A stretch of DNA of 64,000 nucleotides from Bacteroidia bacterium (GCA_965216465.1 CBDCFW010000005.1:512001-576000); one strand, 5' to 3'. Counted from the stretch's first letter, positions 6,136 to 58,000 are shown. Notes: a model not told the origin generated them from the letters alone. Program-made: numbers and translations.

Positions 6136-6157
6136 TTTTCTTTGCTTTAACTTAATC

Positions 6158-10959: not shown

Positions 10960-10976
10960 AAGGGTTACAAATATGC

Positions 10977-37142: not shown

Positions 37143-38489
37143 TTGGATAAATTTTCAGAAACCATAGCAGCTCCTGCTACTCCGTCTGGTATATCAGCAC
37201 TTGCAGTAGTTCGGGTTTCTGGGAATGATGCCATTTCCATCTTAAATAAATGTTTTACTAAGGACGTTGCTGACGCGAGTCCTTATACCATTCATTACGG
37301 TCATATCGTTGATGGCGAAACTAAGATTGATGAGGTATTGGTAAGCATTTTTAGAAATCCTCAATCGTATACTGGTGAAGATTCAGTTGAAATTTCTGGA
37401 CACGGTTCGCCGTACATTACCAAACGAATTCTTGAAACTTTAGTGAAATACGGAGCTCGAATTGCCGAGCCTGGTGAGTTCACTTTGCGTGCTTTTTTGA
37501 ATAAGAAGATTGATCTTGCACAAGCTGAAGCTGTGGCGGACATGATCTCGAGCAACAGCGAAGCAAGCTTGCAAATGGCTTTAAGTCAGATGCGTGGTGG
37601 CTTTAGTAATGATATTGCCTTCTTACGCCAAGAACTGATCGATTTTGCTGCTTTAATTGAGCTGGAAAATGACTTTGGTGAAGAGGATGTTGAATTCGCA
37701 GACCGCGATCGGTTGAAATCTCTGATTGACAAGCTGCTTACTCAAATTGAAAAGCTTCGCTCCTCCTTTGCAGCAGGGAATGTGTTAAAACATGGAATCA
37801 GTACGGTGATTGCCGGAAAGCCCAATGCCGGAAAAAGCACCTTGTTGAATGCATTGCTGAATGAAGAAAGGGCAATTGTATCTGATATTGAAGGAACCAC
37901 CAGAGACACGATTGAAGAAGTTTTTGTGTTGAATGGAATTCAATTCCGATTGATTGACACTGCTGGATTACGTGAAAGCTCAGACCATATTGAAAAGATT
38001 GGTGTAGGCAAAACCAAGGAGCATATGGAGAAGGCTGAGTTGATTGTCTATCTCTTCGATTTAAAAAGCACAACTCCCGAATCGTTGCAAGAAGAGATCA
38101 AAGATCTGCCTGATTCAAACGAATTGGTATTGGTCGCCAACAAAATTGACGGAGTAGAATACAAGACCAAAGATTGGCCAAAGAATACTGTCTTCATTTC
38201 TGCAAAACAGAAAGATATATCTCCACTAATTACAAAGCTTGAAACTATTGCCAACCAATATGAGTTTGGCAACGAGACGATTGTAAACAATGCTCGTCAT
38301 GCCGATGCTCTCACCAAGTCGTCTATCGCTTTAAATCAGGTCATTTCCGGCTTAGATTCAGGAATGACCAGCGACATGGTAGCTTTAGATATTCGAAACG
38401 CCTTGTATCAACTAGGATTAATCACCGGTGAGGTGACAAATGACGAGGTGTTGGATTCGATTTTTACGCGGTTTTGTATTGGTAAATGA
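37143..38489 (+). CDS. mnmE: tRNA modification GTPase MnmE (TrmE)
   Basis: TIAAPAT, SYTGEDSVE, GKPNAGKS, GTTRD, DTAG, C-terminal FCIGK. Confidence 0.98.
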   Translation: MDKFSETIAAPATPSGISALAVVRVSGNDAISILNKCFTKDVADASPYTIHYGHIVDGETKIDEVLVSIFRNPQSYTGEDSVEISGHGSPYITKRILETLVKYGARIAEPGEFTLRAFLNKKIDLAQAEAVADMISSNSEASLQMALSQMRGGFSNDIAFLRQELIDFAALIELENDFGEEDVEFADRDRLKSLIDKLLTQIEKLRSSFAAGNVLKHGISTVIAGKPNAGKSTLLNALLNEERAIVSDIEGTTRDTIEEVFVLNGIQFRLIDTAGLRESSDHIEKIGVGKTKEHMEKAELIVYLFDLKSTTPESLQEEIKDLPDSNELVLVANKIDGVEYKTKDWPKNTVFISAKQKDISPLITKLETIANQYEFGNETIVNNARHADALTKSSIALNQVISGLDSGMTSDMVALDIRNALYQLGLITGEVTNDEVLDSIFTRFCIGK

Positions 38490-38670: not shown

Positions 38671-38730
38671 GATGACATCTCCAGACAGCTTGTGACATCT
38701 CGAGATAGTTCAGGACATCCTTAGACATTA
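38671..38730 (+). repeat. Three imperfect 20-bp tandem repeats (GACA/GATA every 10 bp) upstream of the xis-like gene
   Basis: GACATC at 38674, 38694, 38714; GACA/GATA at 38684, 38704, 38724. Confidence 0.8.
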
Positions 38731-39089
38731 TGAGTTCAAACATGAGATTGAATAAGGTCTGTATTGAATGTGGTAACAACTACATCGCACAGACCACGGT
38801 AACTAAATACTGTTCGCACAAATGTGCGAGCAAATCATACAAAAGAAGAGTTCGAGATCAGAAGCTAAAAGAGTTCAATGAGAAGGAATTAACTATCCGA
38901 ACTCAGCTTATCAAACACCCTGAATTATCTGAAAGACCCGTCTTATCAATTGACGAGACCTGTACACTCATTGGGATAAGTAAACCTACATTCTTTAGAA
39001 TGAGTAGAGCAGGTCAGATCGAGACTACCAAGATTGGTAGAAGGGTCTTCGTATCACGTAAAGAAATCAAAAGAATATTTAAGTTATGA
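38730..39089 (+). CDS. Excisionase-like HTH protein with N-terminal Cys4 zinc-finger-like motif
   Basis: CIECG...YCSHKC; C-terminal LSIDETCTLIGISKPT...KIGRRVFV. Confidence 0.85.
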   Translation: MSSNMRLNKVCIECGNNYIAQTTVTKYCSHKCASKSYKRRVRDQKLKEFNEKELTIRTQLIKHPELSERPVLSIDETCTLIGISKPTFFRMSRAGQIETTKIGRRVFVSRKEIKRIFKL

Positions 39090-40204
39090 ATCACAAAGTA
39101 CACTTGCGTAAAACGCTAAACAGAACAGGAGAGAAATTCTGGTGGAAGTTAGACTTCGCACCTAAACTCAGAGATCCAGAAACAGGTAAACTAACTCGCT
39201 TCAAGGCATTAGGCATATTTACTTATGCCAAGGTCAGAACTCCATTTGAACGGCACCACAATCAGGAAATGAAGGTCCTTTTAGACAATACACTCCTGCA
39301 AGTCAAGATTAAGCTAGTAAATGACGAATTGGACTTCATCAAGGTAGACAACGGACAAAAGGACTTCCTTGAGTATTTTCTAGAACTAGCTGAAAAGAGA
39401 CGCACCAGTAAGTCCAATCACTCTAAGTGGATAATAGTACATAAATACCTTAAAGAGTTTGCTGGGTCAGTCCGTTTTAATGAAATAGACAGAGTTTTCG
39501 CTCAACGCTTTGGCGAGTACCTAAAGAACAAGCCTCACAGCAAAATCAAAGGCAAGACAATCTCAGCTAACTCAGCAGCATCCTATTTCTCCAAGTTCAT
39601 CTTTGCTTTGAAGCAAGGCTACAAGGATGGTTTTCTACCTAAGAATGTAGCTGCCGAGATTGACAGGATAAAGACTACTGAAACGAAACGCATCTTTCTA
39701 ACTCACGAAGAGGTATCTCTACTAATTGAAACTGAATGCTACGACACTATTCTAAAACGATGCTGCATCTTCATGACCTACACTGGAATGCGTGTTAGCG
39801 ATGCTGAAAGACTCAAATGGGGAGATATCGAATACAGTAAAGACGTCGGTTACTTTATACGATTCAGACATCAGAAGACTAAATCTGAGCAAACCCTACC
39901 GATTACAACTGAAGCTTACGAGCTTCTAGGGGATAGAGGTGAAGATGATGAACCTGTGTTCAAAAAATTTAAAAGACGATACCCGGAACTTAAACGATGG
40001 GTAGCTGCAGCCGGAATAAAAAAGAATGTGGGACTGCATACTTTTAGGCACACAGCGGCCACCCTCCTACTTAATGCAGGAGTGGCCATCTACACGGTAT
40101 CCAGGATCTTAAACCACAAAGACTTGAAAACTACAGCAGTTTATGCTAACTTACTAGACAAAACCAAGGCAGAGGCCGTAAGTAAGATTAGTTTTAAAAT
40201 ATGA
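39086..40204 (+). CDS. Tyrosine recombinase / site-specific integrase
   Basis: YTGMRVSD (R), QKTK (K), HTFRH (HxxR), LNH..LKTTAVY (H, Y). Confidence 0.95.
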   Translation: MNHKVHLRKTLNRTGEKFWWKLDFAPKLRDPETGKLTRFKALGIFTYAKVRTPFERHHNQEMKVLLDNTLLQVKIKLVNDELDFIKVDNGQKDFLEYFLELAEKRRTSKSNHSKWIIVHKYLKEFAGSVRFNEIDRVFAQRFGEYLKNKPHSKIKGKTISANSAASYFSKFIFALKQGYKDGFLPKNVAAEIDRIKTTETKRIFLTHEEVSLLIETECYDTILKRCCIFMTYTGMRVSDAERLKWGDIEYSKDVGYFIRFRHQKTKSEQTLPITTEAYELLGDRGEDDEPVFKKFKRRYPELKRWVAAAGIKKNVGLHTFRHTAATLLLNAGVAIYTVSRILNHKDLKTTAVYANLLDKTKAEAVSKISFKI

Positions 40205-40905
40205 CACCAACTGAGAGAGCCAAATTTGTTTTTGACGAGATTTTCCTAAAGTCCGATGGACAGTACCTTTTTCCAATATCTACATCTGAGCAGATGAGAT
40301 TAGAGATAAACAGATACTTGAAGGAAATAAAGACGAAATTGAATAGGACGATCTTCTTAGCAGAGCTTCTAAATCTTCTTGATCGGCAATACCTTGAAAG
40401 AATTCGGTTACAAGAGAGGGATATGTATGGTGTGATTCTTTCAAATCATGAAACAATACTAGCCCTAGAAGCCTGGTTAATTGACCTAATTGATACAACA
40501 CGACGAGAACAAAGCAGGAAGAAGACAAGAAAAGTCACAATCACTAAGGACGCTCAAATAAACCAGCCTGCATTTATTGATTTTCTTGAACATTACATAT
40601 TTGATTATGCAAAACGGGAAGATCTTCTGTTATTCTTCTCCTATCCGTACAAGAGGCCAAAAAATCAACTAAAACTTGCTGTTTCGATTCCTGCATTTGC
40701 ATATCTTATAGATCGTCTTGGAAAAACTGCAACAAGAGACTCGAAATGGCACGACTTAACTCAAGACAAAGTCCTAACCAGTACAACAGGAAAGCCTATA
40801 AACCGTGGTCACTTAGCTAATGCCAATAGTACTGGTAAAAAAAAGACAGAAATCTATTCGATTATTGATGAAAAAATGAAACTCATCAAGAAAAAACACT
40901 CATAA
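40201..40905 (+). CDS. Hypothetical protein coupled to the integrase
   Basis: 234-aa ORF whose ATG overlaps the integrase stop; no motif recognised. Confidence 0.6.
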   Translation: MTPTERAKFVFDEIFLKSDGQYLFPISTSEQMRLEINRYLKEIKTKLNRTIFLAELLNLLDRQYLERIRLQERDMYGVILSNHETILALEAWLIDLIDTTRREQSRKKTRKVTITKDAQINQPAFIDFLEHYIFDYAKREDLLLFFSYPYKRPKNQLKLAVSIPAFAYLIDRLGKTATRDSKWHDLTQDKVLTSTTGKPINRGHLANANSTGKKKTEIYSIIDEKMKLIKKKHS

Positions 40906-40967
40906 TTCAATCTGCTCTTAGTGTTCCAAATTTTATCTCTCATTCTCTGCCGTATTTCGAATGAAAT

Positions 40968-41306
40968 ATGTCAGAGATCACTGTCATACAACTCAGTCAA
41001 GAAGAACTAAGAGCTATTATTCGCAACGAAGTTTCAGCTATTCTCAAAGAGGAACTAAAGAACCTATCTGCATCATCAGGCACTAATGTTTTCTTGACTA
41101 TTGAACAGGCTGCTGAGTACATCTGCTTCTCCCCTGACCACCTACGAAAGATGTGTCAGCAGAGAAAGATTGTAGCTCACAAAGTTTCAAATAAGTGGCT
41201 ATTCAAAAAGTCAGATCTTGATGAGTTTGTATCTCAGGGCAGAATTTTCACTGATGTACAGATCTCCAACGCATCAGAAAGAATCATAAATAAGATTTTA
41301 CAATGA
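40968..41306 (+). CDS. Excisionase-family (HTH_17-like) DNA-binding protein
   Basis: FLTIEQAAEYI...HKVSNKWLFKKSDLDEFV. Confidence 0.88.
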   Translation: MSEITVIQLSQEELRAIIRNEVSAILKEELKNLSASSGTNVFLTIEQAAEYICFSPDHLRKMCQQRKIVAHKVSNKWLFKKSDLDEFVSQGRIFTDVQISNASERIINKILQ

Positions 41307-43159
41307 ACAGAAGAAAAATAGAGTTTAGTGCCAACAATCCAGGTATTAAACGCAATGAGATTGACACTACAGAAACGTTAGAGAATGTTGTTTCATACGT
41401 GAAAGGTAATGCATTTGCAGAGATTACGAAGCTGTATAGAAATGGAAAGGCAGGCAAAGATGAGCTGTTCCCTTACGCTATGTTCTCTGGTCTATTCTCC
41501 GAAAGAAAGGACGAAGCGCTAATTGAGCACTCAGGGCTTATTGCTATTGACATAGACAAGCTAGAAGATGTAGAAGAAGTATTTGATCAGATCTCAAAGG
41601 ATCCGCATACAGTATTCATGTATCGCACCCCTAGTTGGAATGGTTTAAAGGTTATCATCGCAATTGACATTAAAAAGAATACACATCAGGAATACTTCTC
41701 TGCACTTGAGAACTACTTTAAGATACAATTCGACATAGATATAGACAAAAGCTGTAAGAATGTGTCCAGAGCTGCATATCTGTGTTATGACCCTATTTGT
41801 TACGTCAACTATAATGCAGATGTCTTTAGAATTATAAAAAAGAAACCTCTTAAAGTAACTCCTCTATTCAGTCAACAAACCTACCTTGATGTAGAGCAGT
41901 GTATTATCAGTATTGAAGAACTCGAAATTGATCTGACCAGCACCTATGATCGTTGGTTCAAGATTGGTGCGGCGTTGGCCAATACATTTGGAGAAGAAGG
42001 ACGTGAGTTTTTCCAAAGGGTGTCTGCTTTTCATCCAGAATACGATCTCAAGAAATGTGATCAAAAATTCAGCGAGTGCCTAAAGTCCGATAACAGAACG
42101 GTAGGCATAGGTACTTTCTTTCATTACTGCAAAGTCGCTGACGTTCGATATAAAAAGAAGGAGAAGCAACTAGAATCCTTTGAACAACCTGTATTAGGCA
42201 AAGTCATCACGGCCAATCAACGCATTAAGAATGCTAAGTCAATGCCGCCGCTAACGGCCCTATTTGGACCATTCTGGCTCACAAGTCAGATCTGCATCTT
42301 GTTTGGCGATACTGGTTTGGGTAAGAGTAGTCTGATGGTACAGATCGCAGATAACATTAGTAAAGGAAAACGCTCTCTTGTCTTTCTATCTGACCAAGTT
42401 GAAAAGCAGAAAGTCCTGTTCGTTGATTTTGAGCTTTCAGATGCGCAGTTTGCAAGAAGGTATACGGATAGGAAAAACGCCTATGAGTTCAGTGACAACT
42501 TTCTCTTCTTGAACATCGATCTAACAGAGTACTATACTCAATCACACGACAAGTCTGATATTAGCTTTGTTGATTGGCTTTTCAGTTCAATAAAATCTGC
42601 TATCCAAGAAGAGGATGTTAAAGTTCTTATCATCGATAACATTACTTACCTTCATACACACTCAGCACAGGACACACAAGTAGCATTGGATCTTATGCGA
42701 TTGTTGAAGGAAGTAAAGGATGAACTGCAGATATCCATAGCAGTACTTGCTCACCCTCCAAAGCTTAAGCCAAACGAGTCTCTTACACTCAGTCATTTAG
42801 GAGGAAGCAAACACCTATCCAATTTCGCTGACTCAGTGTTTGTCCTTGGCAACAGCAACAATGGGACTAATATCAGGTACCTAAAACACCTTAAATCACG
42901 CGATGCTGAGATGTATTTCGACGCCAGCAATGTGATGACATTAGCACTATCAATGGTAGGCAATATGCTCAAGTTTGAAGTAGAAGGCTTTGCTGAAGAA
43001 TCGGATCACATTTCAGGGACGAAGGCTAAGGAGGACCAAAAGGAAAAGGTACTGGAACTGAAAAAGCAGGGGCTCTCATTGCGTAAGATTGCACAAGAGC
43101 TTGGCATCAGCCATATGAAAGTAAAACGCATCGTTGATCTTGATAAATACAGCAGGTAA
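41303..43159 (+). CDS. Primase-helicase: BT4734/VirE-N-like domain, PriCT-2-like domain, RepA/AAA_25-like ATPase, C-terminal HTH
   Basis: HSGLIAIDID, TPSWNGLKV, DKSCKNVSR; YDRWFKIGAAL; GDTGLGKS, LIIDNIT; GLSLRKIAQELGIS. Confidence 0.85.
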   Translation: MNRRKIEFSANNPGIKRNEIDTTETLENVVSYVKGNAFAEITKLYRNGKAGKDELFPYAMFSGLFSERKDEALIEHSGLIAIDIDKLEDVEEVFDQISKDPHTVFMYRTPSWNGLKVIIAIDIKKNTHQEYFSALENYFKIQFDIDIDKSCKNVSRAAYLCYDPICYVNYNADVFRIIKKKPLKVTPLFSQQTYLDVEQCIISIEELEIDLTSTYDRWFKIGAALANTFGEEGREFFQRVSAFHPEYDLKKCDQKFSECLKSDNRTVGIGTFFHYCKVADVRYKKKEKQLESFEQPVLGKVITANQRIKNAKSMPPLTALFGPFWLTSQICILFGDTGLGKSSLMVQIADNISKGKRSLVFLSDQVEKQKVLFVDFELSDAQFARRYTDRKNAYEFSDNFLFLNIDLTEYYTQSHDKSDISFVDWLFSSIKSAIQEEDVKVLIIDNITYLHTHSAQDTQVALDLMRLLKEVKDELQISIAVLAHPPKLKPNESLTLSHLGGSKHLSNFADSVFVLGNSNNGTNIRYLKHLKSRDAEMYFDASNVMTLALSMVGNMLKFEVEGFAEESDHISGTKAKEDQKEKVLELKKQGLSLRKIAQELGISHMKVKRIVDLDKYSR

Positions 43160-43700: not shown

Positions 43701-44741
43701 ATGAACTCAAAACTCAAATCCTCTATCCTATTAGTCGCACTATTAGTTTCTTCCTGCTCCATTGATTCGACCACTGAATCATCAAGCCCATATTCCGATT
43801 ACCTTCAATACTCAGAGAATCTGGCAAAGAATCTCTCATCTGAAAGAATTGAAACTCGTAACAATCTGATTAACTCACTGGATTCCAATAACACATTTAA
43901 GATGCTATTGTCAGAAGAAAAGGCGGACATCAATAACCTGATTCTAATCGATGCCATTGCCAAAGGAATAAAAACAATCAGCGACCAAGGCTTTACCATT
44001 CCATCAGAGACTCATAACAACATCGCTGCACTTGACGATGGGAAGGGTAAAATTCAATTCGTAGTAAAGGCAATTGGGCTAACACAAGAGGTTCAAGGAG
44101 GTCTAACTCCAGAACTTGTATCTATCTTTGAAAGATACCGAAAGGCATTCGGATACTACGGCGGACCAACCACGCAATACGATGCCAATAAGAACCTGAT
44201 TGGAGAGATAAAGGAGTCATATGATCTGACACCCATTTTTGGTGTCATCGATGGTAAGAACCCAAAAGTAATTGATGCAATAACTCAGGCCAAGATTGAT
44301 GGAATATCTAGCTGGAGTAACGAAGAGGATGCAATCTACTCATACCTATCGGATAGAAAGGCATACAATCAATACTTAGCCGATAATTACCCGAAAAGCA
44401 AGCATTACATTCAATACGACATTGAAATCTCAGCTAAGGAACTCTACGACGCTTACCAAGCTAACGAGGTAGCTGCAGACGAGCGATTCAAGAACAAACG
44501 AGTGCTTGTCTATGGTAAGATATCAGATATTGGTAAAGACATCCTCAATGATCCATATTTATCCCTAGGAGTTGGCTATCTTGAAAGTGTTACCTGCTAT
44601 TTTGATAAGGAGAGCAATTCTCATATTGCGTCTGTAAGTAAAGGACTGAAAATTGAGATAATTGGCACTATCAAAGGATCAGGGATGCTTGGTACTGGGG
44701 TAATTCTGAACAAATGTTCAATTTGGAGCATTAACCACTAG
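43701..44741 (+). CDS. Lipoprotein with C-terminal tRNA_anti-like OB-fold
   Basis: Lipobox LVSSC; ISAKELYDAYQANEVAADERFKNKRVLVYGKISDI. Confidence 0.8.
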   Translation: MNSKLKSSILLVALLVSSCSIDSTTESSSPYSDYLQYSENLAKNLSSERIETRNNLINSLDSNNTFKMLLSEEKADINNLILIDAIAKGIKTISDQGFTIPSETHNNIAALDDGKGKIQFVVKAIGLTQEVQGGLTPELVSIFERYRKAFGYYGGPTTQYDANKNLIGEIKESYDLTPIFGVIDGKNPKVIDAITQAKIDGISSWSNEEDAIYSYLSDRKAYNQYLADNYPKSKHYIQYDIEISAKELYDAYQANEVAADERFKNKRVLVYGKISDIGKDILNDPYLSLGVGYLESVTCYFDKESNSHIASVSKGLKIEIIGTIKGSGMLGTGVILNKCSIWSINH

Positions 44742-44762: not shown

Positions 44763-46139
44763 TCAATTAAACACTTTAGCAAGTTCTGCCGGATAAAAGT
44801 CCTTTACATCTTTCTGCGACATTCTTTTGAAATTAGATTCTCCATTTTCATTTATGCTTGCCTGAAATATAACAAAATCACTGTTGTAGCAGAGCATTGG
44901 ACTGTGAGTTGTAAAAATTATTTGACTAAGAGGATGTTCATCTGGCATTATCATTTTTTCAAGTAGATGCCTCAAGAGTTTGTATTGGTACTTAGGCGAT
45001 AAATTTAATTCCAACTCCTCAATTATTAGCACCTTTGGCCTCGATAATGAAACACGGAAAAGTAAGTAAAACAATTGTTGTATTCCTGTACCGTAAGATT
45101 CAATCGGTAGAATTTTTGAACCTGACACACTATTTTCAAACAGAATATTTATTTCATCTCTGATTTCACCAAATATCATTTCCATGCCCTTAGAAAATGG
45201 TGAATTCTGCTCTGATCGAACCTCAGCAGCATCTCCACCTGGATTAAATGATGACATTTCCTTGATAATACTTTGTAATCTATCGCGAGAAAATGGGTCA
45301 AGTGAAAATCGATGGACCCAACTCTTGAAATTCTTTGGACCAATTGATTCTGAAACATATACATTCTCATACGACTCACTTGTGAAGTACCTGTCGTTAT
45401 CAAGAAATAATACAGAATCATTTAGGAATGAAAGTATACCAGAAAAGACTTGAAACTTGTTCTCATGAATGAAAGGAGTAGTTGCAGTTGCGTCAACAAA
45501 ATATTCCTCACCATCAAATATCAGATGATTATACACTCCTACTTCCGTTAGTTTCATTGTAGCATCAAATTCTCCTAAACTGGTGATTTGTCCTTTAAAC
45601 CTAAACTGAACAGAATCCTTTTCCCCTGATTTGTTTGCATTTGAAATGGATCGATAAAATTCAGACTGCACTTCTGCTTCTTCTGACCCTTGACCGGCAG
45701 CCTTTGCTTCAACATTTAGTTGGTCGGATTGTGCTTTAGCAGCGGCAACTTGCTCATCATTGAAATACAAGCCCTTCATTTCGAGAATGAGTTTTTCATC
45801 AATCTCAACTAGTGTCTTAATTGGAATATCAACCCAAACCTCAAATTCAATTGGTGTTTCACGCTTCATATTGCGAAAAATAAAAGGCGCTCTATCTATT
45901 ATTCCATCCCACCAATCTGTATTGGGAAACTTTTCATTATCATCTTCAAAATCAAACTCTGTTGAGTGAGCTAATTTCTGTTTTTCAAGTTTCCTACTAA
46001 ACAACATCTCAATGAATTTCAACATATTAGATTTCCCACTGTTGTTAAACCCATATAACATGTTGACATTTGAAATCCATTTAATGTCTTGTTCTTTGAT
46101 ACTCTTAAAATTTTTAATTTTGATCCTTCTTATTTTCAT
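44763..46139 (-). CDS. ABC-type (AAA_15/AAA_21-like) ATPase with no fused nuclease
   Basis: IKNFKSI, Walker A GFNNSGKS, signature YGTGIQQ, Walker B LIIEELE, H-loop FTTHSP. Confidence 0.88.
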   Translation of the reverse strand: MKIRRIKIKNFKSIKEQDIKWISNVNMLYGFNNSGKSNMLKFIEMLFSRKLEKQKLAHSTEFDFEDDNEKFPNTDWWDGIIDRAPFIFRNMKRETPIEFEVWVDIPIKTLVEIDEKLILEMKGLYFNDEQVAAAKAQSDQLNVEAKAAGQGSEEAEVQSEFYRSISNANKSGEKDSVQFRFKGQITSLGEFDATMKLTEVGVYNHLIFDGEEYFVDATATTPFIHENKFQVFSGILSFLNDSVLFLDNDRYFTSESYENVYVSESIGPKNFKSWVHRFSLDPFSRDRLQSIIKEMSSFNPGGDAAEVRSEQNSPFSKGMEMIFGEIRDEINILFENSVSGSKILPIESYGTGIQQLFYLLFRVSLSRPKVLIIEELELNLSPKYQYKLLRHLLEKMIMPDEHPLSQIIFTTHSPMLCYNSDFVIFQASINENGESNFKRMSQKDVKDFYPAELAKVFN

Positions 46140-47809
46140 TATATATAGTCTTTATATTGTTCTAAAACATTTCTTGATAAAACCTCAAACTGACTCCGAT
46201 CGATTGTATCATCGGTAAAATGTTTGAGCAAGAATAAATGTAATCTAATAAACACGTCTGTGTGCTTTACTTTCTTGAATAGCGGATAGTTACTGTTAAT
46301 TAATAAATCCCCGTCTACAAGTTTACAGGCAGGATATAGTTCTTGATCATCATCAAAATCCCAATCATCTTTTAAGACCCTATACGATGTTCCATCATGT
46401 TCAATAGTCTTCTCTACATAATGTTTTGATGACTTCTCTAGTGGTTCTTGCCTATTTTTTTTCGTCACATCCTTTTCTTCCTTATCAATCGCATCTGGAC
46501 CAAAATCAAATTCAAAAACTTCTTGTTCAATCTTACGCTCAAGCTCTGCAAGGCGATTCTGTCTTTCCTCTGAACTTGGTGTTTCATCGACAGGTTTAAT
46601 AAAACCTAAATTACTAATTCTTTCTGTCGACAAGTTGCGTTTGTAATCAGCTTCAGCTTCTAATTGATTTGAATGCTTGTTCAAGATGTCAACCATATAC
46701 TCTACCACTTTCTCATAATCTTCGTGATAGACAAAATCATCTCTTGAAACATTTATTAAATCATTTACACCTTCAATAAAGTGAATCTCTCCAGTCAACT
46801 GATGTAACCTCGATCTAGCTCCTCCCCTTTGTATTCCAAGTCCAAATCTTTCCCTTCGCCCTACTCCTGCATTTATGTTTCTTCTTTTTAAATATCTAGC
46901 TTCGTATGGTCGAACCGACTTCTTATCTGTGAGAATAAAATATTGAAACTTGACTCTACCAATTGTTACAATGTCATCTGCGCTAATTACCGGATCTTGA
47001 TGATGATATTGATTCTCTTCGAACCTCCGCTCAACGCCATTAACTTCAAGCAACGTTTTGCCATGTGTTTTCCTTTTGAGCTCCTTCCCGTTCAAAACAA
47101 CTTTGAATGGAAGATTTGGAGAATATTTCTTAACAAGAGAGTCAAATCGTTCATCCTCATATTTTATAGGAAGATCTTCGGTCAATCCCCAAATGAGCTT
47201 GTCCATCCCATCTTCACTGTGAATTGAATATTTTCTCTTCCCAATAGATTTGGATGGACTAAAAAAAGCACTGGTTAATTCTGTAAAACCTTTTAATGTA
47301 ATCCTCGTATAATGTTTGGATTTCAGGCTCACATCCCTGTACGTACCCCCACGGATATCAATCTTATCAATATCAATTGAACGTTCTTCATTGAAATACT
47401 CGTAACATGGAACAGAGGCCTTTACAACCTCTTCCGATCCTCCACATGTGGTTTCGATACTGTAGTTATCAAAAAATGGAAAACTTGACAAGAATCCTAC
47501 ACCGAACTGCCCAATAACAAGTCTTCCAGATCTTGTTTTTGCTCCCTTTTCTCTCGTCTTTCCAGCTATTTTTACAAGAAAATCAAATTCCGCCTCTGTC
47601 ATCCCTTTCCCATTGTCCTCAATCACAACCTCTTGACTATCTAGATTAACGTCTATCGTCACAGACGATGCGTCTGCGTCATATGAATTTGTAATAATCT
47701 CTTTTAGGGCACTGGGAAAATTCTCATATGTAGATTGACTCAAAATCTTTACGATTCTTTTATCAACCGAAATTTGCTTTGGCCAAATATTTTTCTTCAC
47801 CTTACTCAT
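46139..47809 (-). CDS. GHKL (MORC/HATPase_c_3-like) ATPase
   Basis: ALKEIITNSYDADA, IEDNGKGM, GQFGVGFLS, YTRITL; downstream LTGEIHF...SRDDF. Confidence 0.88.
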   Translation of the reverse strand: MSKVKKNIWPKQISVDKRIVKILSQSTYENFPSALKEIITNSYDADASSVTIDVNLDSQEVVIEDNGKGMTEAEFDFLVKIAGKTREKGAKTRSGRLVIGQFGVGFLSSFPFFDNYSIETTCGGSEEVVKASVPCYEYFNEERSIDIDKIDIRGGTYRDVSLKSKHYTRITLKGFTELTSAFFSPSKSIGKRKYSIHSEDGMDKLIWGLTEDLPIKYEDERFDSLVKKYSPNLPFKVVLNGKELKRKTHGKTLLEVNGVERRFEENQYHHQDPVISADDIVTIGRVKFQYFILTDKKSVRPYEARYLKRRNINAGVGRRERFGLGIQRGGARSRLHQLTGEIHFIEGVNDLINVSRDDFVYHEDYEKVVEYMVDILNKHSNQLEAEADYKRNLSTERISNLGFIKPVDETPSSEERQNRLAELERKIEQEVFEFDFGPDAIDKEEKDVTKKNRQEPLEKSSKHYVEKTIEHDGTSYRVLKDDWDFDDDQELYPACKLVDGDLLINSNYPLFKKVKHTDVFIRLHLFLLKHFTDDTIDRSQFEVLSRNVLEQYKDYI

Positions 47810-48900
47810 TGAGCTATTATTAGTACTTCTCTATTCTCTCTGGCATTTCCATTTTGCTTATTAAGCGCATACTTGTAGTGCATACTTTTTACTTGGATAC
47901 TTGTTTTATACTTAGACAACAGTTCAAGTATTTCTTCAATAGATGGAATCCCATTCTTCTTATACGAAATCACAATGGTGCTTTTTTGATAAATGTCGAA
48001 TAGCTTATTAAAGCTATCAAGTACATTCCTTTTCTTAAATGCCGTACTATGGAGTTCCTTTTTGTATCGGAGGTTTTTTGAAGTAAAATCAATCATATCA
48101 CCCCACTGATTGTAATCCATTAATCCTTCCAAAAAGTGATAACAATAAAGATAATCTATGGTATCATGATCACCGTTTATATCCACATATGGAGGATCTA
48201 AATAAACTAAATCATACTCTCCTGAGATAGATAAAGCATCTTGGTTTAATGCCACGCATCTTTCACTGTTATCAAAAACACATCTATTGGCTTCCTCAAT
48301 AAATTTCCTTACTTGATCTTCAAATGTTCTCTCCCAAGTGACTTTGTTGCCAAAATTGCGTTTCACATCGTTCAACCGCATGTAAAGATTTTTTCTATGA
48401 AACAAATTGTATGGCCTTTTCGTCAAACATGCTTGAAACAATCCAAATAAAGCAAGATCAATCTTTACACTACTTTGGGGATCACCTTTAAACACCGACT
48501 GCAGATTATACATAAACTTATCCAACCAAACATTTTCCTCATCTGTGAAGTAGATGTTGTTAAAGTTATCGGCTATAAAGCTGTTCTCCAACTCTATTTC
48601 ATCCAAATTGAGTAAGAGGTCAATCTCTGACGATGACAATTTGACTGAACTATTTTCAATTAGAGCCTTGCCAATGGTTGTATTGAACTTCAATGAATCA
48701 TTGTAAGTCACACTTTTTCCTTTTGTCTTGAATAAGTAACTTACAGCTCCAGTACCCCCAAAAGCATCTAGTACAGTTTGGTAGTCTAGGCCATCAAGCT
48801 GTTCTTCAATCCAATCTAGTATTTTCCTCTTGCTACCTTGATATCGGGTAGAAGGAAAGTACTGAGATGTTATTTTCTTTTCAATTACTTTCATTATCAA
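47806..48900 (-). CDS. N6-adenine DNA methyltransferase (D12/Dam-like)
   Basis: RYQGSKRK, motif I VLDAFGGTGAVS, motif IV DLVYLDPPY. Confidence 0.92.
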   Translation of the reverse strand: MIMKVIEKKITSQYFPSTRYQGSKRKILDWIEEQLDGLDYQTVLDAFGGTGAVSYLFKTKGKSVTYNDSLKFNTTIGKALIENSSVKLSSSEIDLLLNLDEIELENSFIADNFNNIYFTDEENVWLDKFMYNLQSVFKGDPQSSVKIDLALFGLFQACLTKRPYNLFHRKNLYMRLNDVKRNFGNKVTWERTFEDQVRKFIEEANRCVFDNSERCVALNQDALSISGEYDLVYLDPPYVDINGDHDTIDYLYCYHFLEGLMDYNQWGDMIDFTSKNLRYKKELHSTAFKKRNVLDSFNKLFDIYQKSTIVISYKKNGIPSIEEILELLSKYKTSIQVKSMHYKYALNKQNGNARENREVLIIAQ

Positions 48901-49078
48901 CTAGTAGATCTTTGACACTAACTTTTAGCACCTCGGCGATAGCATATAGAACTTCCAATCTAGGTTGAGATTTGTTGTTGCAATAGTTGTTTACAATCAC
49001 CGTGCTTTTGTTAATCTGTTCTGACAACCACGTTTGAGTTCTACCCTGAGCTTTAAGTACTTTCTTAATGCGATTCAT
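48881..49078 (-). CDS. Cro/C1-type HTH regulator (controller-like)
   Basis: 65 aa; NRIKKVL..QGRTQTWLSEQI...QPRLEVLYAIAEVLKV; overlaps the MTase start. Confidence 0.88.
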   Translation of the reverse strand: MNRIKKVLKAQGRTQTWLSEQINKSTVIVNNYCNNKSQPRLEVLYAIAEVLKVSVKDLLVDNESN

Positions 49079-49104: not shown

Positions 49105-49129
49105 CAAAAGTAATTGTATTTTATTACTT
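49105..49129 (-). promoter_or_regulatory. -7 promoter element overlapped by an inverted repeat (candidate operator)
   Basis: Minus-strand TACTTTTG at 49105-49112; AAGTAAT-N8-ATTACTT at 49108-49129. Confidence 0.55.
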
Positions 49130-49189: not shown

Positions 49190-49939
49190 CTAAATATCCT
49201 TCCTACCATACTTATACAATGCGCTGTTGACAAACAAGGCTGGAACCTTTGCACTTTCTGAGACCTTCACAATATGAGTGTGCACCATAGAGCAAGTAGC
49301 ATAGTTATCTAACAACGACCCAGAGTGTTCGTTTAACCAATCTGGATCAAAATCTTCCATAAATTTGTATCCTTCTTTTTTTAACCTTAGAATTCCTTTG
49401 TTAACTTCAAAGCCCGTTGCTAGAACAATGGAATCAATTCCATCAACTTCCCAAAGTCTTTTCTGATCTTCTAGGATAATCTTAAATGGCCCAAGAAATA
49501 AAAAAGGTCCAATACCATTTACAGCCTTTTCTTCTCGGTATTTGTTCAGTTTACTTAAAAGTCTTTGTTGCAATTTATTTATGTCATGAACTGAACAGGT
49601 TCTAAAGTCAGGCATTAGATCTTTTACCCTTCTGTAGAATGACCTATAGCCAATAAGAGCCTCATCTAACTCGTCAGGACCAAATCGTTTGCAGAATCTC
49701 TTTGCCATTGAAGCATCTTTTGCGATTGATCCATCAATAAATCTTGAGGCATATTCAAAAAACTCAAATTCAAATTTCGAGTGTAAAGTCCATCCCAAAG
49801 AAATAGCAGCAGCTATTGGGTAGTAATCACTTTGAATCTCATTAAAGAATGGTCTATTCCTTTCGTAAATTTCTTCGCTAAATAATCTACCATGTTCTGC
49901 AAGGTATGTGGCTATACTAATATCATTTTTATGCTTCAC
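49190..49939 (-). CDS. Hypothetical protein, possible HhH-type DNA glycosylase fold
   Basis: VNGIGP helix-hairpin-helix-like motif; C-terminal VNSALYKYG. Confidence 0.5.
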   Translation of the reverse strand: MKHKNDISIATYLAEHGRLFSEEIYERNRPFFNEIQSDYYPIAAAISLGWTLHSKFEFEFFEYASRFIDGSIAKDASMAKRFCKRFGPDELDEALIGYRSFYRRVKDLMPDFRTCSVHDINKLQQRLLSKLNKYREEKAVNGIGPFLFLGPFKIILEDQKRLWEVDGIDSIVLATGFEVNKGILRLKKEGYKFMEDFDPDWLNEHSGSLLDNYATCSMVHTHIVKVSESAKVPALFVNSALYKYGRKDI

Positions 49940-52063: not shown

Positions 52064-55000
52064 CTACTGAGCAACCTTAACCAAATATCTGTAATATACA
52101 GTTCCTCCAATCTCAAATCGTACATTATACAACCCAGCACTTAGCGCACTTAAGTCTAAATGAGTAATATTCTCTGCAGCCACGTTAGTCTCTGTAACCA
52201 AGCTAACTCCGTAGTTATTTGCTACTACAATAGTCCCTGTTTGGCCGGCATGCCACCCTTTTGCTACCTCATCCAACTCAACACTCAACATTGCTTGCGT
52301 TGGGTTCGGCGCTAATAGTAAATGAGGAGATTCTTGAATCTCAACTGTATAGAGCTGCTCGTCTAAATCATCAAATTCACCATTAGTATTGTCTATTGAT
52401 ACCGACCCTGCACCAACTACATTATTTGAAGCATCTCGTTGCTCAATTCCTAATTCATAATACTCGTCATCAATATTGTCCCAGCCATTAGCGGGATCAA
52501 ACATCGGGGCAAAGAAATAAACGTCATTATCTGGAAGACTTAAATTATTAATACAATAGTTCCCAATTTGAGCAAAAGCAAAGATATCACCTCCCATATG
52601 GACAATATGTGAGTTCTGAGGCAAACAAGCAATCATTGGACTTATGAGTCTTTCCTCGACACGAATTGCAAAATCCCAATTGCTGAAGAAATTTGAATCC
52701 ATATCTTCAATACAAATTGAGACCAATCCTCCATTTACTGAACTTAGTCTACCGAAACCGATCCAAGAACCACCCATATAATCGATTTCTCCGTCATTGT
52801 CATTATCAACGAGATTACTTGTGTCTGAATCTACTACCCAGATGTTCTTTGTCGCTATGTTATTATTCCCAATAGCATTGTACTTAGCGTGCACTCCAAA
52901 TGCTTCATTCCTACTCATTCTGTGCGGGTAATCTTCACAATGTTCTAATCTCGCCAAAATACACACACTCAATCTATCAAAATCTCCAGCTTTATTTCCA
53001 TTTGCATCCTTTGGATAGTAATGAGCAGGATTGGGCGGATACCAATCATAGAATATGTTTAAACTATCTCCAGGAGCAATTGGAGGAACCATAATAGCGG
53101 CGGAGTTTATTCTACTTCCCATAGGGAAACTATCACTCAATGGGTCATTCCAAAATTGATTACCAATGGTGTCTAACCACCTTAAATCCCATTCTTCATT
53201 ATTTATCTGTCCAAGCGTCCAATAAAGATATAGAGGGGTCCTAACTGTCGGAACTGAAGCTCTGTTTCTAACTTTTATACCTAATTGATTTGGACTTAAA
53301 TTCTTAAACTCACATTGTTGATGAACAAGACCATTGTCAGAATTAACTCTATTCCAAATATCAGGAGATCGAACAATATCATAATGACTTGAATCTGGAT
53401 TAGGCTCTGTTCCATTGTCTTTCCAGCTATCCCTAATCCAAATATCTCCTTGAATATTAGTAAATAATAAGGCCTTCCTAGAATACACCGTTCCGCAACT
53501 TGTTGTAACCTTGAACCTAAATGTATCTGTAAGATTATAGCTTGAGGACTTATTAGATGTGTAGGTATAGGTCATGCCATTAACCGTTCCCAGTTCTGTG
53601 AAATCTGGATCTCCAGATGCCCTAAATTCTGCCTTAATTACTGCCTGTGTAGAAGTCAGGTTTCTTAGCTCAAGATCAAATTGTATTTGATCACTCGAAG
53701 GATCACAAAGAAGTACATCTTCTGGTTGCTTTGTAATATAAATGCCCGGCTTAATCTCCAATACATTGGAGTAGGTCACACAGGTAAAATAAGGAATATC
53801 TAACTTTCTTCTATAAAAAGAAATTGTGTCTTGATGCAAGATTGTATCGTAGAAGGTGTGATTCGTATATCCGGTTCCGCTACTACCAGTTTTCATAATA
53901 CTCCAACTAGCATTATCAGATGAAGACTCCCACACATAGGTCAAAGAATTATTGCCAATGTTAGAGTAGAGAGAATTACCCTTTAGGTGAATGCTATCAC
54001 CTCCTGTGCAAAACTCTATTTCATCTGTCCAAATTGTGTTGCTTTCAAATACACGTGCAACATTAACACTGTTACTATACGATTCACAATCCCCAGACTT
54101 CACAAGTCTTCTATAATAAGTTGAAAACGAAGGACTTAAATAAAAATCCCTATTTGTAGCACCAGAAACAATACTATAATCGGTACCATTTGACGACGAA
54201 TACCACTGGTAAGAATAATTACCTGTTCCTCCTGAAGGGTCTGAACCGTGAATCACCGAATTTGAATCAACTTGACAAAAAATTGTTGAATCAACAGAAA
54301 TTGTATTTTGAATTGGAGTATGCACAGTAACTTGAATTACAGAAGTATCTGAGCACCCAAAACTTGAAGTACTAATCAACTCTATTGATCCATTTGTCGT
54401 AAACTCTGTTAGAATACTGGTGTCCGTAAGTATTCTAACAAGTGTTCCATTCGAAACACTCCAATTAAAGGATTCACCCAACCTTATTGGAGTTGCAGAG
54501 TAGGTGTATTGCTCGTTTGTGTAGCAAATTTGTCGATCTCCTAAAATATTCGGAGCAGGAAGTGGTTCTAAAGAGAGTTGCTTCGATACCGTATCCCCAT
54601 CAACAATTAAACTCACAGTATAAATCCCTTGACTATTATAAGAATGGCTCGGATCTTCTAAAAGGGATGTATCTCCATCACCAAACAACCACTTCTTTGA
54701 AAGATTACAGTATTCCTCTGTATTAAATTGCACTTGAGTACAATTGGTTACGCTAAAATCAAAGTCAAGCTGAGAATCAATCTTCTTTTTTACATCAAGT
54801 GAAATTGTATCGACACAACCTGTCACAGAATCAGTAATAATACACTGAATCTGACCATTTCTTGACCAGACTGCATATGCAATATTAACTGAGTCAATTA
54901 GTGATGAATTGCCAATAGCACTCCACTGGTAGGCAAAACCACTATTATAAGGTAAGCTATACTGAAATGATGTGCTGTCATCACAGTTTACTGTTACACC

Positions 55001-58000
55001 AGTCATAACTTTATCTGCTGCACCAATACCAATAGTAACAGTTTTTGTAACAGTGTCTTTACCCACTATGAGTTTGACTGTATATGACCCGTCACTAGCA
55101 TACGTGTGAAATGGATCTTGACGATATGAATCTGTTCCATCGCCAAACATCCAGTAATGTCCAGAATCGCAATAATTAAAGGTCTCAAACTGAATATCAG
55201 AACAGTTAATCGCAGTATAACTGAAATCAACATCAATACTATCTGACCAATAAACATATTTTGTGACAGAGTCAATACATCCAGATTGTAAGTTTGTCAC
55301 CACTGCCTTTATATAACTAGCGGTATCTGACCAAAACACATGAACTTTCTTGTTCTGATAATACTCATCTCCTCCATCAACTATCCAAATGACGCTATCT
55401 TCCTTGTTTTTATCAAAGTCAGTGTAGTACTCATACTCAATGGAGTTATCGCACAACACTTCCCTTCCATATATTTTTAATTCACCTATAAATCCAATTT
55501 CGACTTCTTGACTAATTGGATCTCCATCAACTATTAACACGACCGTGTATATACCTTCATCAGCATAAGTGTGACTGGGATTTTGAAGTTCAGAACTATC
55601 ACCATCACCAAAGAACCATTTAAACGAGTTCGCACAACAAGTCTTAGCTCTGAACTTGACTTCAAAGCAAGAAATTCTCTCAACAATAAAACCTTCATTG
55701 GTTAATAGGGGAGGATCTGCATCTATGAAGTTTGGTAAACCAACCTTACATATCCCTCCATCATTCCCGACATTTAATACTGGTCCAACAGCTTGAAATT
55801 CACATTCGTTGGTATTGGTAACACGCTCATTAGGTTTATTTACTACGGCTACATATGACTGATTATATGCTGTAACATATATCTTACCATCTGGGGCCAC
55901 CTGTAAAGCTCTGAAGTAACTTCCAATATCTTGCTCCTCAAACTCAGCTACAGCTCTCCTTGAACCGAAAACATCTTGACTCTGTAAATCATATTGATAC
56001 AGATAGTGATAGAAATTGGAGTCTATAATATTGCTTCCGCTTCCCTTATACTTTGCCCCGCTGATATACATCAGCTTACTATTTGGACTAAATGTTACTC
56101 CATACAGTCTATCACTGTTTTGAAGAGAGTCATTGAACTTTAATGTTAATGAGCCATCTGCACGACAGAATTCATACAAACTGTTCAATACCCAAACATA
56201 TAATCCGTCGGGCGAAAACTTGATAAATCCTGTATGAGAGCTATTTTGATTGGTATAAATGCTCTGTCGGTGCGAAAATCTTACCCCTGTGTCGCTGACC
56301 ACATAGAACTCAACATAATTAGTACCTCCAGAACCAGCAGGATTAGTCGTTAGTAGCCAGAAGGTACTGTCATCACATCGCTTGATAGCCGAAATTGCCT
56401 CACTAGGCCCAGCAAGATTACCTAAAGTATCTCGAATTGTGTCGTTTCGTAATGTAACCGATCCGTATTGAGTTCTTACTGGATTATAGACAATCAAGTC
56501 TATTAAATTTCTGTTAAATACACTCTGTAAGTTTCCAACAGAACCAACAAATGCACGTGTAAACAAATGCAATTTGCTGGTATCTGAATTATAAGGAATT
56601 ACGATCATACTCTGTGCACTGCTACTGCTTCCGTCGATTTCAGAATTTGTCATTGCCCTAAATCTGTGTCCATACACATCTAAACCATTAACCTCAGCAC
56701 TTGATACTGATTGACCTCCTGCATATGCCTTCAAATTCCCTGAACTATCACTATATGATGTGCTTCCTTCATAGGATTGAATGTTTGGAGCATTTGATCT
56801 TGGACCAGTAGAGCGTGTCACCTTGTTATCGTAGAAATGAAGACCAGCATGGTCTCCAAAAAGCCAATTTGCCTTAGTACTTTCCATTGGACTGCACTCA
56901 ATAACCTGAACGTTATAAGGGTAGACATAAGTTTTATTGCTTGAACCCACACTTATTGTAAGTTTTATGTCGTAAGTTCCTGTATCAATATTTGCTACTG
57001 TATATTGATATAAGCCAGAACCAATAGTTGAGCTATAACTTGTTTGCCATTTCTTTTTGTACTCCCATTTATAGGTCACCCCAGTTCCAAGATTATATGC
57101 TTCAAACCAAGCATCATCTCCGTAGCATACTAAGTTAGATCCAACAAACCTTGCAACCCAAAAACAACTGTCGCTATCTACGGTATTTACACTTCTAGGA
57201 TCTGCCAATTGACTTCGATAGGTGTGTAGTGTTGAGAGCATCACACTCAATTGGTCATTGGTGAATTGCTTGCGACAAGCATCTGAGGTGTAACTCATCA
57301 AATTGTATACTGCATCATAATCAGAACTATCTGGACAAGAGTTGAGCGTAGGGTTACAATTAGTTATTTCACCTTTACTTTGAGCTACATCACAGCATAG
57401 ATCCCCACTATCTTTACAGTTAGGATATGTACTGCCAGAACATTCTTGCTCCCATGGATGGAACAGACCTAAATAATGACCGACCTCATGAGCTAAAAGA
57501 TCTCCTTCATTTCCGTTCCGTATTGGAGTTCCGTAATTGTAATGTCCAAATACGTCATACTCCATTACTGTACCTTGAGCAATACTCCCTATCGTAAAAG
57601 GATAACTTGAATATCCATCTACGGGTGTAGTACCTCCTGTTTTACTCAACACCTTATTAATCACATAAATATTCAGATACTTACTTTCATCGATATTGTA
57701 TTCTTGCCGAATTAAATCAAAACTGTCCTGATGAAGACTCATTTGATAAAATCGAGATGATGAATGCCGATATATTGTATCCAAAAAGAATTGTATTCCT
57801 GTATTTATACTGTTAATGTCATCGGCAAACACATTGTTCAATTGATTGATCTGGTTTACTATTTGAGAACTATTGATATTCTCATTTGATCCAATGTTAT
57901 TATTAGGGTGATGTACTACGTGAACGATTACAGGAATAATATAATTAGTTTCTACACATCCATTACCTGTGCCACCTGTTAAGCTAAATATACCTGAGGG

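Follow-up and report, generated by a model that had tools for sequence, protein, structure and literature searches.

The window analysed here, a stretch of 64,000 nucleotides (nt) from a Bacteroidia bacterium (GCA_965216465.1 CBDCFW010000005.1:512001-576000), carries an operon in which the genes of an adenine methyltransferase, a GHKL ATPase and an ABC ATPase follow that of a small helix-turn-helix (HTH) protein. The genes and an inverted repeat upstream of them are as follows, with positions counted from the first letter of the window and lengths in amino acids (aa):

48881-49078, minus strand: HTH_3 regulator (Cro/C1-type), 65 aa; Pfam HTH_3, E 3.7e-11
47806-48900, minus strand: D12-class (alpha group) N6-adenine DNA methyltransferase, 364 aa; MethyltransfD12 PF02086, E 1.9e-18
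46139-47809, minus strand: paraMORC-like GHKL+S5 ATPase, 556 aa; HATPase_c_3, E 4.7e-19
44763-46139, minus strand: PtuA/Rad50/SMC-head-like ABC ATPase, 458 aa; AAA_15, E 1e-23, and AAA_21, E 1.2e-22
49108-49129, minus strand: candidate operator AAGTAAT-N8-ATTACTT, a perfect 7-nt inverted repeat with arms 100% complementary

All four genes are co-directional. The methylase gene has a TTG start with an in-frame ATG two codons downstream, so that its overlap with the HTH gene is either 20 or 14 nt; the GHKL and methylase genes overlap by 4 nt, and the ABC and GHKL genes share one base. The map of open reading frames (ORFs) in the window thus bears out the single operon of four overlapping ORFs that was proposed in the initial annotation. 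The inverted repeat sits 30-51 nt upstream of the HTH start codon and is a putative HTH operator, which might also be a chance occurrence, being a 7-nt repeat in AT-rich DNA; one of its arms overlaps a TAnnTTTG-like element on the coding strand, which we take to be the Bacteroidota -7 consensus. The pairing of an HTH regulator with an inverted repeat upstream is typical of restriction-modification control, and judged by its sequence the HTH protein looks like a restriction-modification controller protein. It is an accessory that stands outside the conserved core, since among 42 related loci a homologue at the same upstream position was present only in L001 and L082 (2 of 42), and the conserved unit is one of three genes rather than the four-gene system first proposed.

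The order methylase, GHKL ATPase, ABC ATPase is confirmed to recur far above chance. The 42 related loci, in which ORFs were called and neighbours were clustered by BLASTP, comprise one locus from genome contigs (L001) and 41 from metagenome contigs. A scan of genome contigs with the single GHKL protein gave 71 stretches, none of them a relative, and in a scan with the alignment, taken to the best 80 of 570 relatives, 79 of the 80 matched only a generic GHKL N-terminus and L001 was the useful one. The largest neighbour clusters are those of the GHKL protein (42 loci), the ABC protein (41) and the D12 methylase (36), and the next largest reaches 5 loci. In 36 of the 42 loci the gene immediately upstream of the GHKL gene is that of the methylase, with a gap of -11 to +8 nt; of the six loci that have no upstream methylase, four are contigs that end at most 164 nt from the GHKL gene and two are L001 and L093. 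In 40 of the 42 the GHKL gene is followed directly by the ABC gene, with a gap of -38 to +18 nt, the remaining two being L103, which is cut, and L121, where the GHKL gene is broken. The gene order noted in the initial annotation, less its regulator, is thus kept as a tight trio in 36 of the 42 loci. Daejeonella lutea and Maribacter sp. 2210JD10-5 are the carriers that NCBI records name; their proteins bear no annotation beyond 'ATP-binding protein'.

No nuclease or other fourth gene is conserved across the 42 loci, either by ORF clustering or by a Pfam scan of the neighbours, which covered 118 ORFs of at least 100 aa plus five from L001 and left aside ORFs truncated at contig ends as well as six near-duplicate loci. 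None of the neighbour domains occurred in more than three loci, AbiEii being found in three (L084, L087 and L093), and the nuclease-type domains were PIN_12 in two loci and Exo_endo_phos, HsdR, MjaI and MmeI in one each. The view that the system has no visible nuclease therefore stands, as an endonuclease that is normal in relatives and was lost here is not what the 42 loci contain. An effector supplied by a neighbouring gene, which the initial annotation had allowed for, gains no support from the neighbours, which vary between loci. The 249-aa ORF beside the operon (ORF249, 49190-49939) was considered for this role and rejected: it has no match in Pfam, PADLOC, NCBIfam, PHROGs or the PDB, its ESM Atlas match scored 0.80, and it has a homologue in 0 of the 42 loci.

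Some single loci have neighbours of note. A 360-aa PIN_12 protein is found downstream of the ABC gene in L114 (4356-5438) and upstream of the methylase in L117 (4866-5948); it is the only nuclease-type neighbour seen twice, and is too rare for a component. In L001, from a Bacteroidales metagenome-assembled genome, the trio with an N6_N4 methylase adjoins a complete 933-aa MmeI-family enzyme (4803-7604 and 10847-12439), and in L093 the alternative N6_N4 methylase is followed by an Exo_endo_phos protein.

The methylase has the motifs RYQGSK, FGGTG and DPPY. All 30 of 30 aligned homologues keep D45, G48, G49, D235, P237 and Y238; the second position of DPPY varies, one member of the family having DIPY. 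These motifs predict an active-looking alpha-group enzyme that forms N6-methyladenine (m6A). The protein matches PADLOC MTase_II PDLC03261 at 6.6e-59 over profile positions 306-630 of 643, and its best match is thereby the second half of a double-methylase model, so that perhaps one strand of an asymmetric site is modified, which we take as a lead only. Residues 155-189 are a long, largely invariant stretch across the family, which suggests a single fixed specificity; one specificity throughout the family would be unusual for restriction-modification systems. In L001 and L093 the D12 methylase is replaced by an unrelated 530-aa N6_N4 (beta-class) methylase directly after the ABC gene, and since a non-homologous methylase can be swapped in while the GHKL and ABC genes stay, methylation itself appears to be what the pair needs. 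In L105 a second copy of the D12 methylase family and an unknown 369-aa gene accompany the trio.

The GHKL protein has N41, D65/G67/G69, G100/G103/G105 and T168 as its motif residues, all invariant in 30 of 30 aligned homologues. A structure model built with 30 homologues (predicted local distance difference test, pLDDT, 76.8; predicted template modelling score, pTM, 0.72) places a GHKL+S5 module at residues 14-396, then a low-confidence disordered linker at ~395-461. The C-terminal domain that follows is specific to the family; its ~95 residues form four strands and two helices, with a beta-hairpin and then a helix at the end. The best Foldseek matches of the model are HtpG/Hsp90, MORC3, MORC2/4, TRAP1 and the N-terminal domain of MutL, and all the fold-search matches of the whole model fell on residues 14-396. 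The extra length of the protein relative to its homologues is a low-complexity helical insert, common to L082, and no space is left for an additional nuclease domain. The S5 domain carries a family motif of unusual strength, KxRNxNxGVGxR...GE...GxN...SRDxF, at residues 306-360 (window ~46730-46894), of which residues 352-360 are modelled at pLDDT <50. In the C-terminal domain N505, Y508 and D518 are invariant in 30 of 30, K515 is kept in 28 of 30 and H524 in 27 of 30; beyond the GHKL domain the only invariant acidic residues are E341 and D518, which belong to different domains.

None of this resembles a known nuclease in the searches made. In the family alignment the C-terminal domain shows neither a PD-(D/E)xK nor an HNH pattern and lacks an invariant histidine, its residues 455-556 have no Pfam match at E up to 10, and a profile of the S5 and C-terminal domains against PDB sequences gave 0 matches at E up to 10. 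The whole protein matches no nuclease family in Pfam, PADLOC or NCBIfam, and the statement in the initial annotation that it lacks a PD-(D/E)xK or HNH motif holds by libraries and alignment alike. Against the canonical MutL of the same genome only 58 columns of the GHKL profile align, in GHKL motifs I-II, and for the C-terminal region no similarity was detected. DUF6551 was the best named ESM Atlas cluster for the C-terminal domain and was rejected, as its score of 0.89 is below the trustworthy level; the other clusters were unnamed.

The protein had been taken for a MORC ATPase. It has GHKL motifs I-IV and an S5-fold transducer, but the MORC-specific S5 motif GhXhhpXXRhl (Iyer et al. 2008, PMC2292703, as given in the part of that text available to us) was found in 0 of 30 aligned members by a regular-expression scan. 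A strict MORC identity is therefore given up, and the protein is better called paraMORC-like, since it has the features of that group, namely a GHKL+S5 module, a C-terminal extension of its own and a place in a methylase operon. Its homologues number 227 at E up to 1e-3; among the 120 matches listed, identity is 38-53%, nearly all are full length (407-558 aa), and the names, where given, are only 'ATP-binding protein' or 'hypothetical'. From 1.84 billion representatives the S5 and C-terminal profile retrieved 182 clusters (50% identity), 52 of them at <=1e-30 and none longer than 676 aa. In a search for fused, longer relatives of this part none of 1306 candidates scored, which is weak evidence.

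In the ABC protein the Walker A residues G30 and K36-S37, the signature G350-T351-G352 with Q355, the Walker B/D-loop residues E374-E375-E377 and the H-loop H412 are invariant in 30 of 30, so that in the methylase and in both ATPases the catalytic motifs are as intact as had been proposed. Alignments of the structure model with the heads of PtuA, Rad50 and SMC fall within residues 1-452. The protein carries a short helical hairpin insert; outside the ATPase motifs, R250 and E255 are the only charged residues that the family keeps invariant. The C-terminus lies 46 residues past H412, and Pfam, PADLOC and NCBIfam found neither a TOPRIM domain nor a match to any nuclease family, in agreement with the earlier description of an ABC ATPase that ends soon after its H-loop and has no TOPRIM. 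An FDF domain in the insert (residues 50-340) was rejected, the lone Pfam match at E up to 10 being at chance level (0.021).

The two ATPases are inherited together. For the window and 29 loci with all three genes, the methylase has a median pairwise identity of 52%, the GHKL protein one of 45% and the ABC protein one of 35%, and the pairwise identities of the GHKL and ABC proteins correlate at 0.93. Their trees have 17 of 26 and 27 splits in common, compared with at most 2 in 500 label shuffles, and the methylase tree has 7-8 splits in common with each of them; some of the loci are near-duplicates, so that these figures overstate independence. Prediction of a GHKL-ABC complex gave an interface score (ipSAE) of 0.52 (runs 0.49, 0.56 and 0.52), the best of three controls giving 0.00, with at least 77% contact agreement between runs and a partner pLDDT of at least 73. 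Among solved complexes 58 of 80 reach the mark for this score, and among mismatched pairs 2 of 110; only 7 of the 80 solved complexes, but both mismatches, do so with a value of at most 0.60, and the support is to that extent weak. Given the strong prior from the gene coupling, the modelling lends mild support to a GHKL-ABC complex.

The trio, which dozens of environmental bacteria keep as a unit, is rare and sporadic in its distribution and lies here on what appears to be a mobile island. Among 401 Bacteroidota genomes sampled, the GHKL and the ABC protein were each found in 1, their own genome, and tblastn at 1e-10 gave no match for either in plasmid and phage collections. In 11 of 12 genomes of the same genus the DNA matches are confined to the mnmE side of the query and stop by ~38487, the end of mnmE, and the twelfth (71% complete) gave only a marginal match of 55 nt; beyond ~38487 and up to 56 kb the same-genus genomes gave three matches of ~55 nt, at E 5e-6 or weaker. 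The island has these features:

37143-38489: mnmE, which the island adjoins
38730-43159: integrative-element backbone with HTH_17 (excisionase-like), tyrosine integrase, a second HTH_17 protein and primase-helicase
39086-40204: tyrosine integrase
41303-43159: BT4734-type primase/AAA_25 helicase
49190-49939, minus strand: ORF of 249 aa
50173-50715, plus strand: ORF of 180 aa
50719-51690, plus strand: ORF of 323 aa

The integrase, HTH_17 and primase-helicase genes, together with congener matches that stop at mnmE, indicate an integrative element. As to its attachment sites, only three short two-copy families of direct repeats were found, none at plausible ends, and the window has no tRNA. The G+C content at third codon positions is 0.30-0.35 in the operon, 0.42 in the integrase and primase genes and 0.29 in the flanking protease gene, and composition is not decisive. 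In other loci the trio has as neighbours AbiE pairs, a TIR protein, HsdR, MjaI and MmeI restriction-modification genes, an integrase, insertion sequence (IS) elements and HigB. Such sporadic spread, with defence and mobile genes as neighbours, is how a defence or selfish cassette behaves. In L105 (2750-11253) the trio is inserted between the N-terminal and C-terminal genes of a transketolase, a housekeeping gene pair.

Around the operon in the window, the ORFs of 249, 180 and 323 aa have no credible match in Pfam or PHROGs, the third having one match below the Pfam cut-off (NTE_Ploop, E 0.0086). A 346-aa ORF at 43701-44741 on the plus strand, convergent with the ABC gene, shows a tRNA_anti-like OB fold at its C-terminus (2.5e-15) and matches a superinfection-exclusion (Sie)-like family in PHROGs (2e-08); on these matches it may be a second cargo defence gene. 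At 52064-58186 on the minus strand lies the gene of a 2040-aa protein, predicted to be secreted, that carries a peptidase M43 domain, several PKD domains and a C-terminal sorting domain for type IX secretion; the gene has no DNA match in the 12 same-genus genomes except two of ~57 nt.

For this locus we infer a defence activity with methylation-based discrimination, for which clamping, silencing and nucleotide depletion are candidate mechanisms. The reading that we prefer, at a probability of roughly 45%, is that the trio is a mobile, three-gene unit of the restriction-modification kind, the restriction arm of which would have no nuclease of its own and would act by clamping or compaction of DNA or by its handover to a host nuclease. 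The D12-class methyltransferase would put m6A on host DNA as a self mark, and the GHKL+S5 and ABC ATPases would act as one restriction arm, analogous to MutL and MutS with Dam. Through ATP-driven dimerisation and clamping the GHKL-ABC unit would engage DNA that lacks the mark; the pair would then block replication or expression of unmodified DNA by clamping or compacting it, or pass it on to a host nuclease, with no cleavage of its own. As no recognisable nuclease was found in either ATPase or in a conserved neighbour, it would be either the pair itself that blocks the DNA or a host nuclease that acts on it. The copy in the window would be placed under the C-protein-type HTH regulator. A narrower version, in which immunity is nuclease-free throughout, is possible but doubtful; the ABC ATPase would load or license a GHKL clamp, and topological trapping or compaction by this clamp would silence the replication and expression of unmethylated incoming DNA.

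Several observations speak against the three-gene unit as we have described it. The polar S5 residues K308, R310, N311, N313, R319, E341, N349 and R356 are invariant in 30 of 30, and their role is unexplained. With N505, D518, K515 and H524 conserved in the C-terminal domain, and with fold matches that covered residues 14-396 only, a new nuclease site may be present there. All the solved ABC relatives listed (PtuA, GajA, AriA, OLD, Eco8 and Rad50) work with a nuclease, and the score of the GHKL-ABC complex is only a weak pass. Neither ATPase has a hypervariable DNA-reading region and the methylase is the most conserved of the three proteins, which makes it hard to see how a sequence-specific discrimination would arise. 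Moreover, PADLOC-DB dates from 2023, and the system may have been described elsewhere.

The main rival, which we consider unlikely, is a restriction-modification system with a cryptic nuclease, in which the C-terminal domain or the S5 motif of the GHKL protein cleaves DNA and the ABC protein is a motor or regulator. Restriction enzymes that bear a GHKL domain are a named family (NF050001), and the PADLOC models PDLC03485 and PDLC03419 match the GHKL N-terminus; however, the match to this enzyme family covers only ~100-130 N-terminal residues, at 70.8 bits compared with a cut-off of 550. Likewise, paraMORC3, MutL and Tiamat pair a GHKL module with a C-terminal nuclease, according to the available portions of the sources (PMC2292703; 10.64898/2026.09.30.754977), but the alignment with the MutL of this genome is confined to those 58 columns of GHKL motifs I-II. 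The C-terminal hairpin-helix with its invariant N505 and D518 and near-invariant K515 and H524 would suit an active site, and the structural relatives of the ABC protein all partner with nucleases; set against this are the missing PD-(D/E)xK or HNH pattern and invariant histidine, the empty Pfam and PDB profile searches at E up to 10, and the location of the only two invariant acidic residues past the GHKL domain, E341 and D518, in different domains. A system of the ordinary kind that has decayed in this genome by loss of its endonuclease gene would account for an operon in which no endonuclease is visible, but it is contradicted, and hardly credible, since the nuclease-less trio with overlapping or abutting genes is present in 36 of 42 loci, no extra family occurs in more than 5 of them and the catalytic motifs are all intact.

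Two further explanations take the methylase out of the centre or the trio out of immunity. In an abortive-infection pair the ABC protein would sense a phage protein or DNA end and activate a toxic GHKL protein, and the methylase would be secondary, for example in silencing the pair on host DNA. The end-to-end match of the ABC protein to PADLOC AriA PDLC02979 (4.4e-26) and the frequent toxin-antitoxin or Abi genes among the neighbours fit such a pair, but the AriA match appears generic, no AriB, PtuB or TOPRIM partner was found, and the near-obligate linkage to a methylase, including the unrelated substitute in 2 loci, signals modification-dependent discrimination, which makes this explanation improbable. 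A mobile module for epigenetic or DNA-maintenance purposes (repair of the MutS/MutL kind, or chromosome organisation) or a selfish addiction cassette would parallel Dam with MutS and MutL in its make-up, an analogy drawn for MORC-type proteins in the portion of Iyer et al. 2008 at hand (PMC2292703). The invariant methylase stretch 155-189 would also suit it, suggesting one fixed specificity and not the diversifying ones usual in defence, and many of the loci lie among housekeeping genes. It is improbable in view of the presence of the trio in 1 of 401 genomes and 0 of 12 congeners, the mere 182 clusters among 1.84 billion representatives, the integrative island here, the defence or mobile genes beside the trio elsewhere, and the canonical MutL that the genome retains.

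If the trio protects cells, either it holds a new nuclease site, or methylation-gated immunity can be carried out by ATP-driven clamps that do not cut DNA. In the latter case bacterial defence would be tied to the MORC-based silencing of eukaryotes, and a nuclease-free trio would be both a bacterial counterpart of that silencing and a minimal model for prokaryotic MORC-type ATPases.

In comparison with known systems, PADLOC-DB v2 (2023), NCBIfam and Pfam contain no matching system and gave component-level matches only, and PHROGs adds nothing functional. Full-text searches found no paper that describes a unit of methylase, GHKL and ABC proteins, within a literature in which the classification of ABC ATPases was not fully covered. 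The proposal in the initial annotation that the system is undescribed is in line with this, since neither PADLOC-DB (2023) nor NCBIfam holds a system-level model. The GHKL protein matched two REase_II models of PADLOC (PDLC03485 and PDLC03419) and MzaB/TmtA with its N-terminal residues 16-112 only. The ABC protein matched 123 PADLOC families, headed by AriA PDLC02979 at 4.4e-26; as this model (373 positions) and Pfam AAA_15 (374) are of about the same size and cover the same span, and as so many families matched, we regard the match as generic. The NCBIfam scores are far below their cut-offs, with 70.8 of 550 bits for BbrUII/HgiDII, 24.2 of 850 for MzaB, 55.7 of 250 for the Eco8 effector, 33.5 of 500 for PtuA and 22.4 of 420 for MAD3.

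The closest likeness is to the prokaryotic MORC and paraMORC ATPases, which were predicted in 2008 for a defence of the restriction-modification kind (Iyer et al. 2008, PMC2292703). The statements that follow refer to the parts of that paper, and of the preprint on Tiamat, that were available. The described systems share with the trio a GHKL+S5 ATPase with a C-terminal extension, a methylase operon, a sporadic spread that suggests lateral transfer, and a proposed restriction-modification-like role. Their operons contain superfamily II (SFII) helicases, nucleases of the RE-fold, HNH, Vsr or TIR type and mostly cytosine methylases (PMC2292703), whereas the trio has an ABC partner, an adenine methylase and neither helicase nor nuclease. 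An ABC partner is not among the themes of the 2008 text (PMC2292703). The 2026 preprint on Tiamat (10.64898/2026.09.30.754977) still treats what prokaryotic MORCs and paraMORCs do as proposed, names helicases, nucleases and methyltransferases as their neighbours, and does not use the term ABC. A GHKL module coupled to a C-terminal nuclease is known in paraMORC3, MutL and Tiamat (PMC2292703; 10.64898/2026.09.30.754977).

With PtuA-PtuB, AriA-AriB, GajA-GajB, OLD and WonAB/PD-T4-4 the trio has in common a Rad50-like AAA_15/AAA_21 head with a short helical insert, and an ABC ATPase tightly coupled to one partner gene. That partner is here a GHKL ATPase, in contrast to the HNH, TOPRIM or PD-(D/E)xK nuclease or UvrD helicase of the two-gene systems, and a methylase is included. 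The ABC protein is not fused to a C-terminal TOPRIM domain as in OLD and GajA, the models of which match only the ends of the ATPase; no AriB-like TOPRIM gene, as in PARIS, occurs in the window operon or the 42 loci; and neither a PtuA score above the cut-off nor a PtuB HNH protein, as in Septu and retron type I-A, was found. The Vibrio cholerae WASA paper (PMC12137116) describes, in the part available, WonAB as an ABC ATPase with a PD-(D/E)xK partner and also a GHKL-Shedu fusion, neither of which equals the methylase-GHKL-ABC trio.

BbrUII/HgiDII (NF050001) and the REase_II families PDLC03485 and PDLC03419 likewise have an N-terminal GHKL domain and a gene beside a methylase. Only ~100-130 N-terminal residues match (NF050001 at residues 13-137), the remainder being unrelated by sequence, and of 12 more distant relatives 11 match in the GHKL part only and one not at all, so that a full-length likeness is absent; the GHKL family of the trio also needs an ABC partner, unlike these restriction enzymes. 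From a Type II system the locus has the site-specific methyltransferase with intact catalytic motifs, while a Type II endonuclease with a recognised fold (PD-(D/E)xK, HNH, GIY-YIG or PLD) is neither present among the operon proteins nor conserved in the 42 loci. BREX, MADS, Hma and DISARM resemble the trio in that a methylase is linked to ATPases and in that the action of the restriction effector is debated or not obvious; the trio differs in having three genes only. A Pfam scan of the window genes at 37143-58186 found no PglZ, BrxC or BrxL and no partners of the MzaB system, the PADLOC and NCBIfam scans covering the operon proteins and ORF249; for MADS, no MAD family was assigned to the GHKL protein, and PADLOC mad2 matches the methylase at residues 14-68 only (55 residues).

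In methyl-directed mismatch repair, methylation tells two DNA states apart. The Dam/MutS/MutL/MutH system, like the trio, has a D12/Dam-class adenine methylase, an ATPase of the ABC superfamily and a MutL-type GHKL+S5 ATPase; the trio differs in that it has no MutH-like nuclease, in that its ABC protein is of the PtuA/Rad50 kind and not MutS, and in that it is mobile and sporadic and not universal. The trio is thus apparently an undescribed unit among GHKL-associated systems of the restriction-modification kind and, at ~4.1 kb, the smallest context in which we have met such a GHKL protein.

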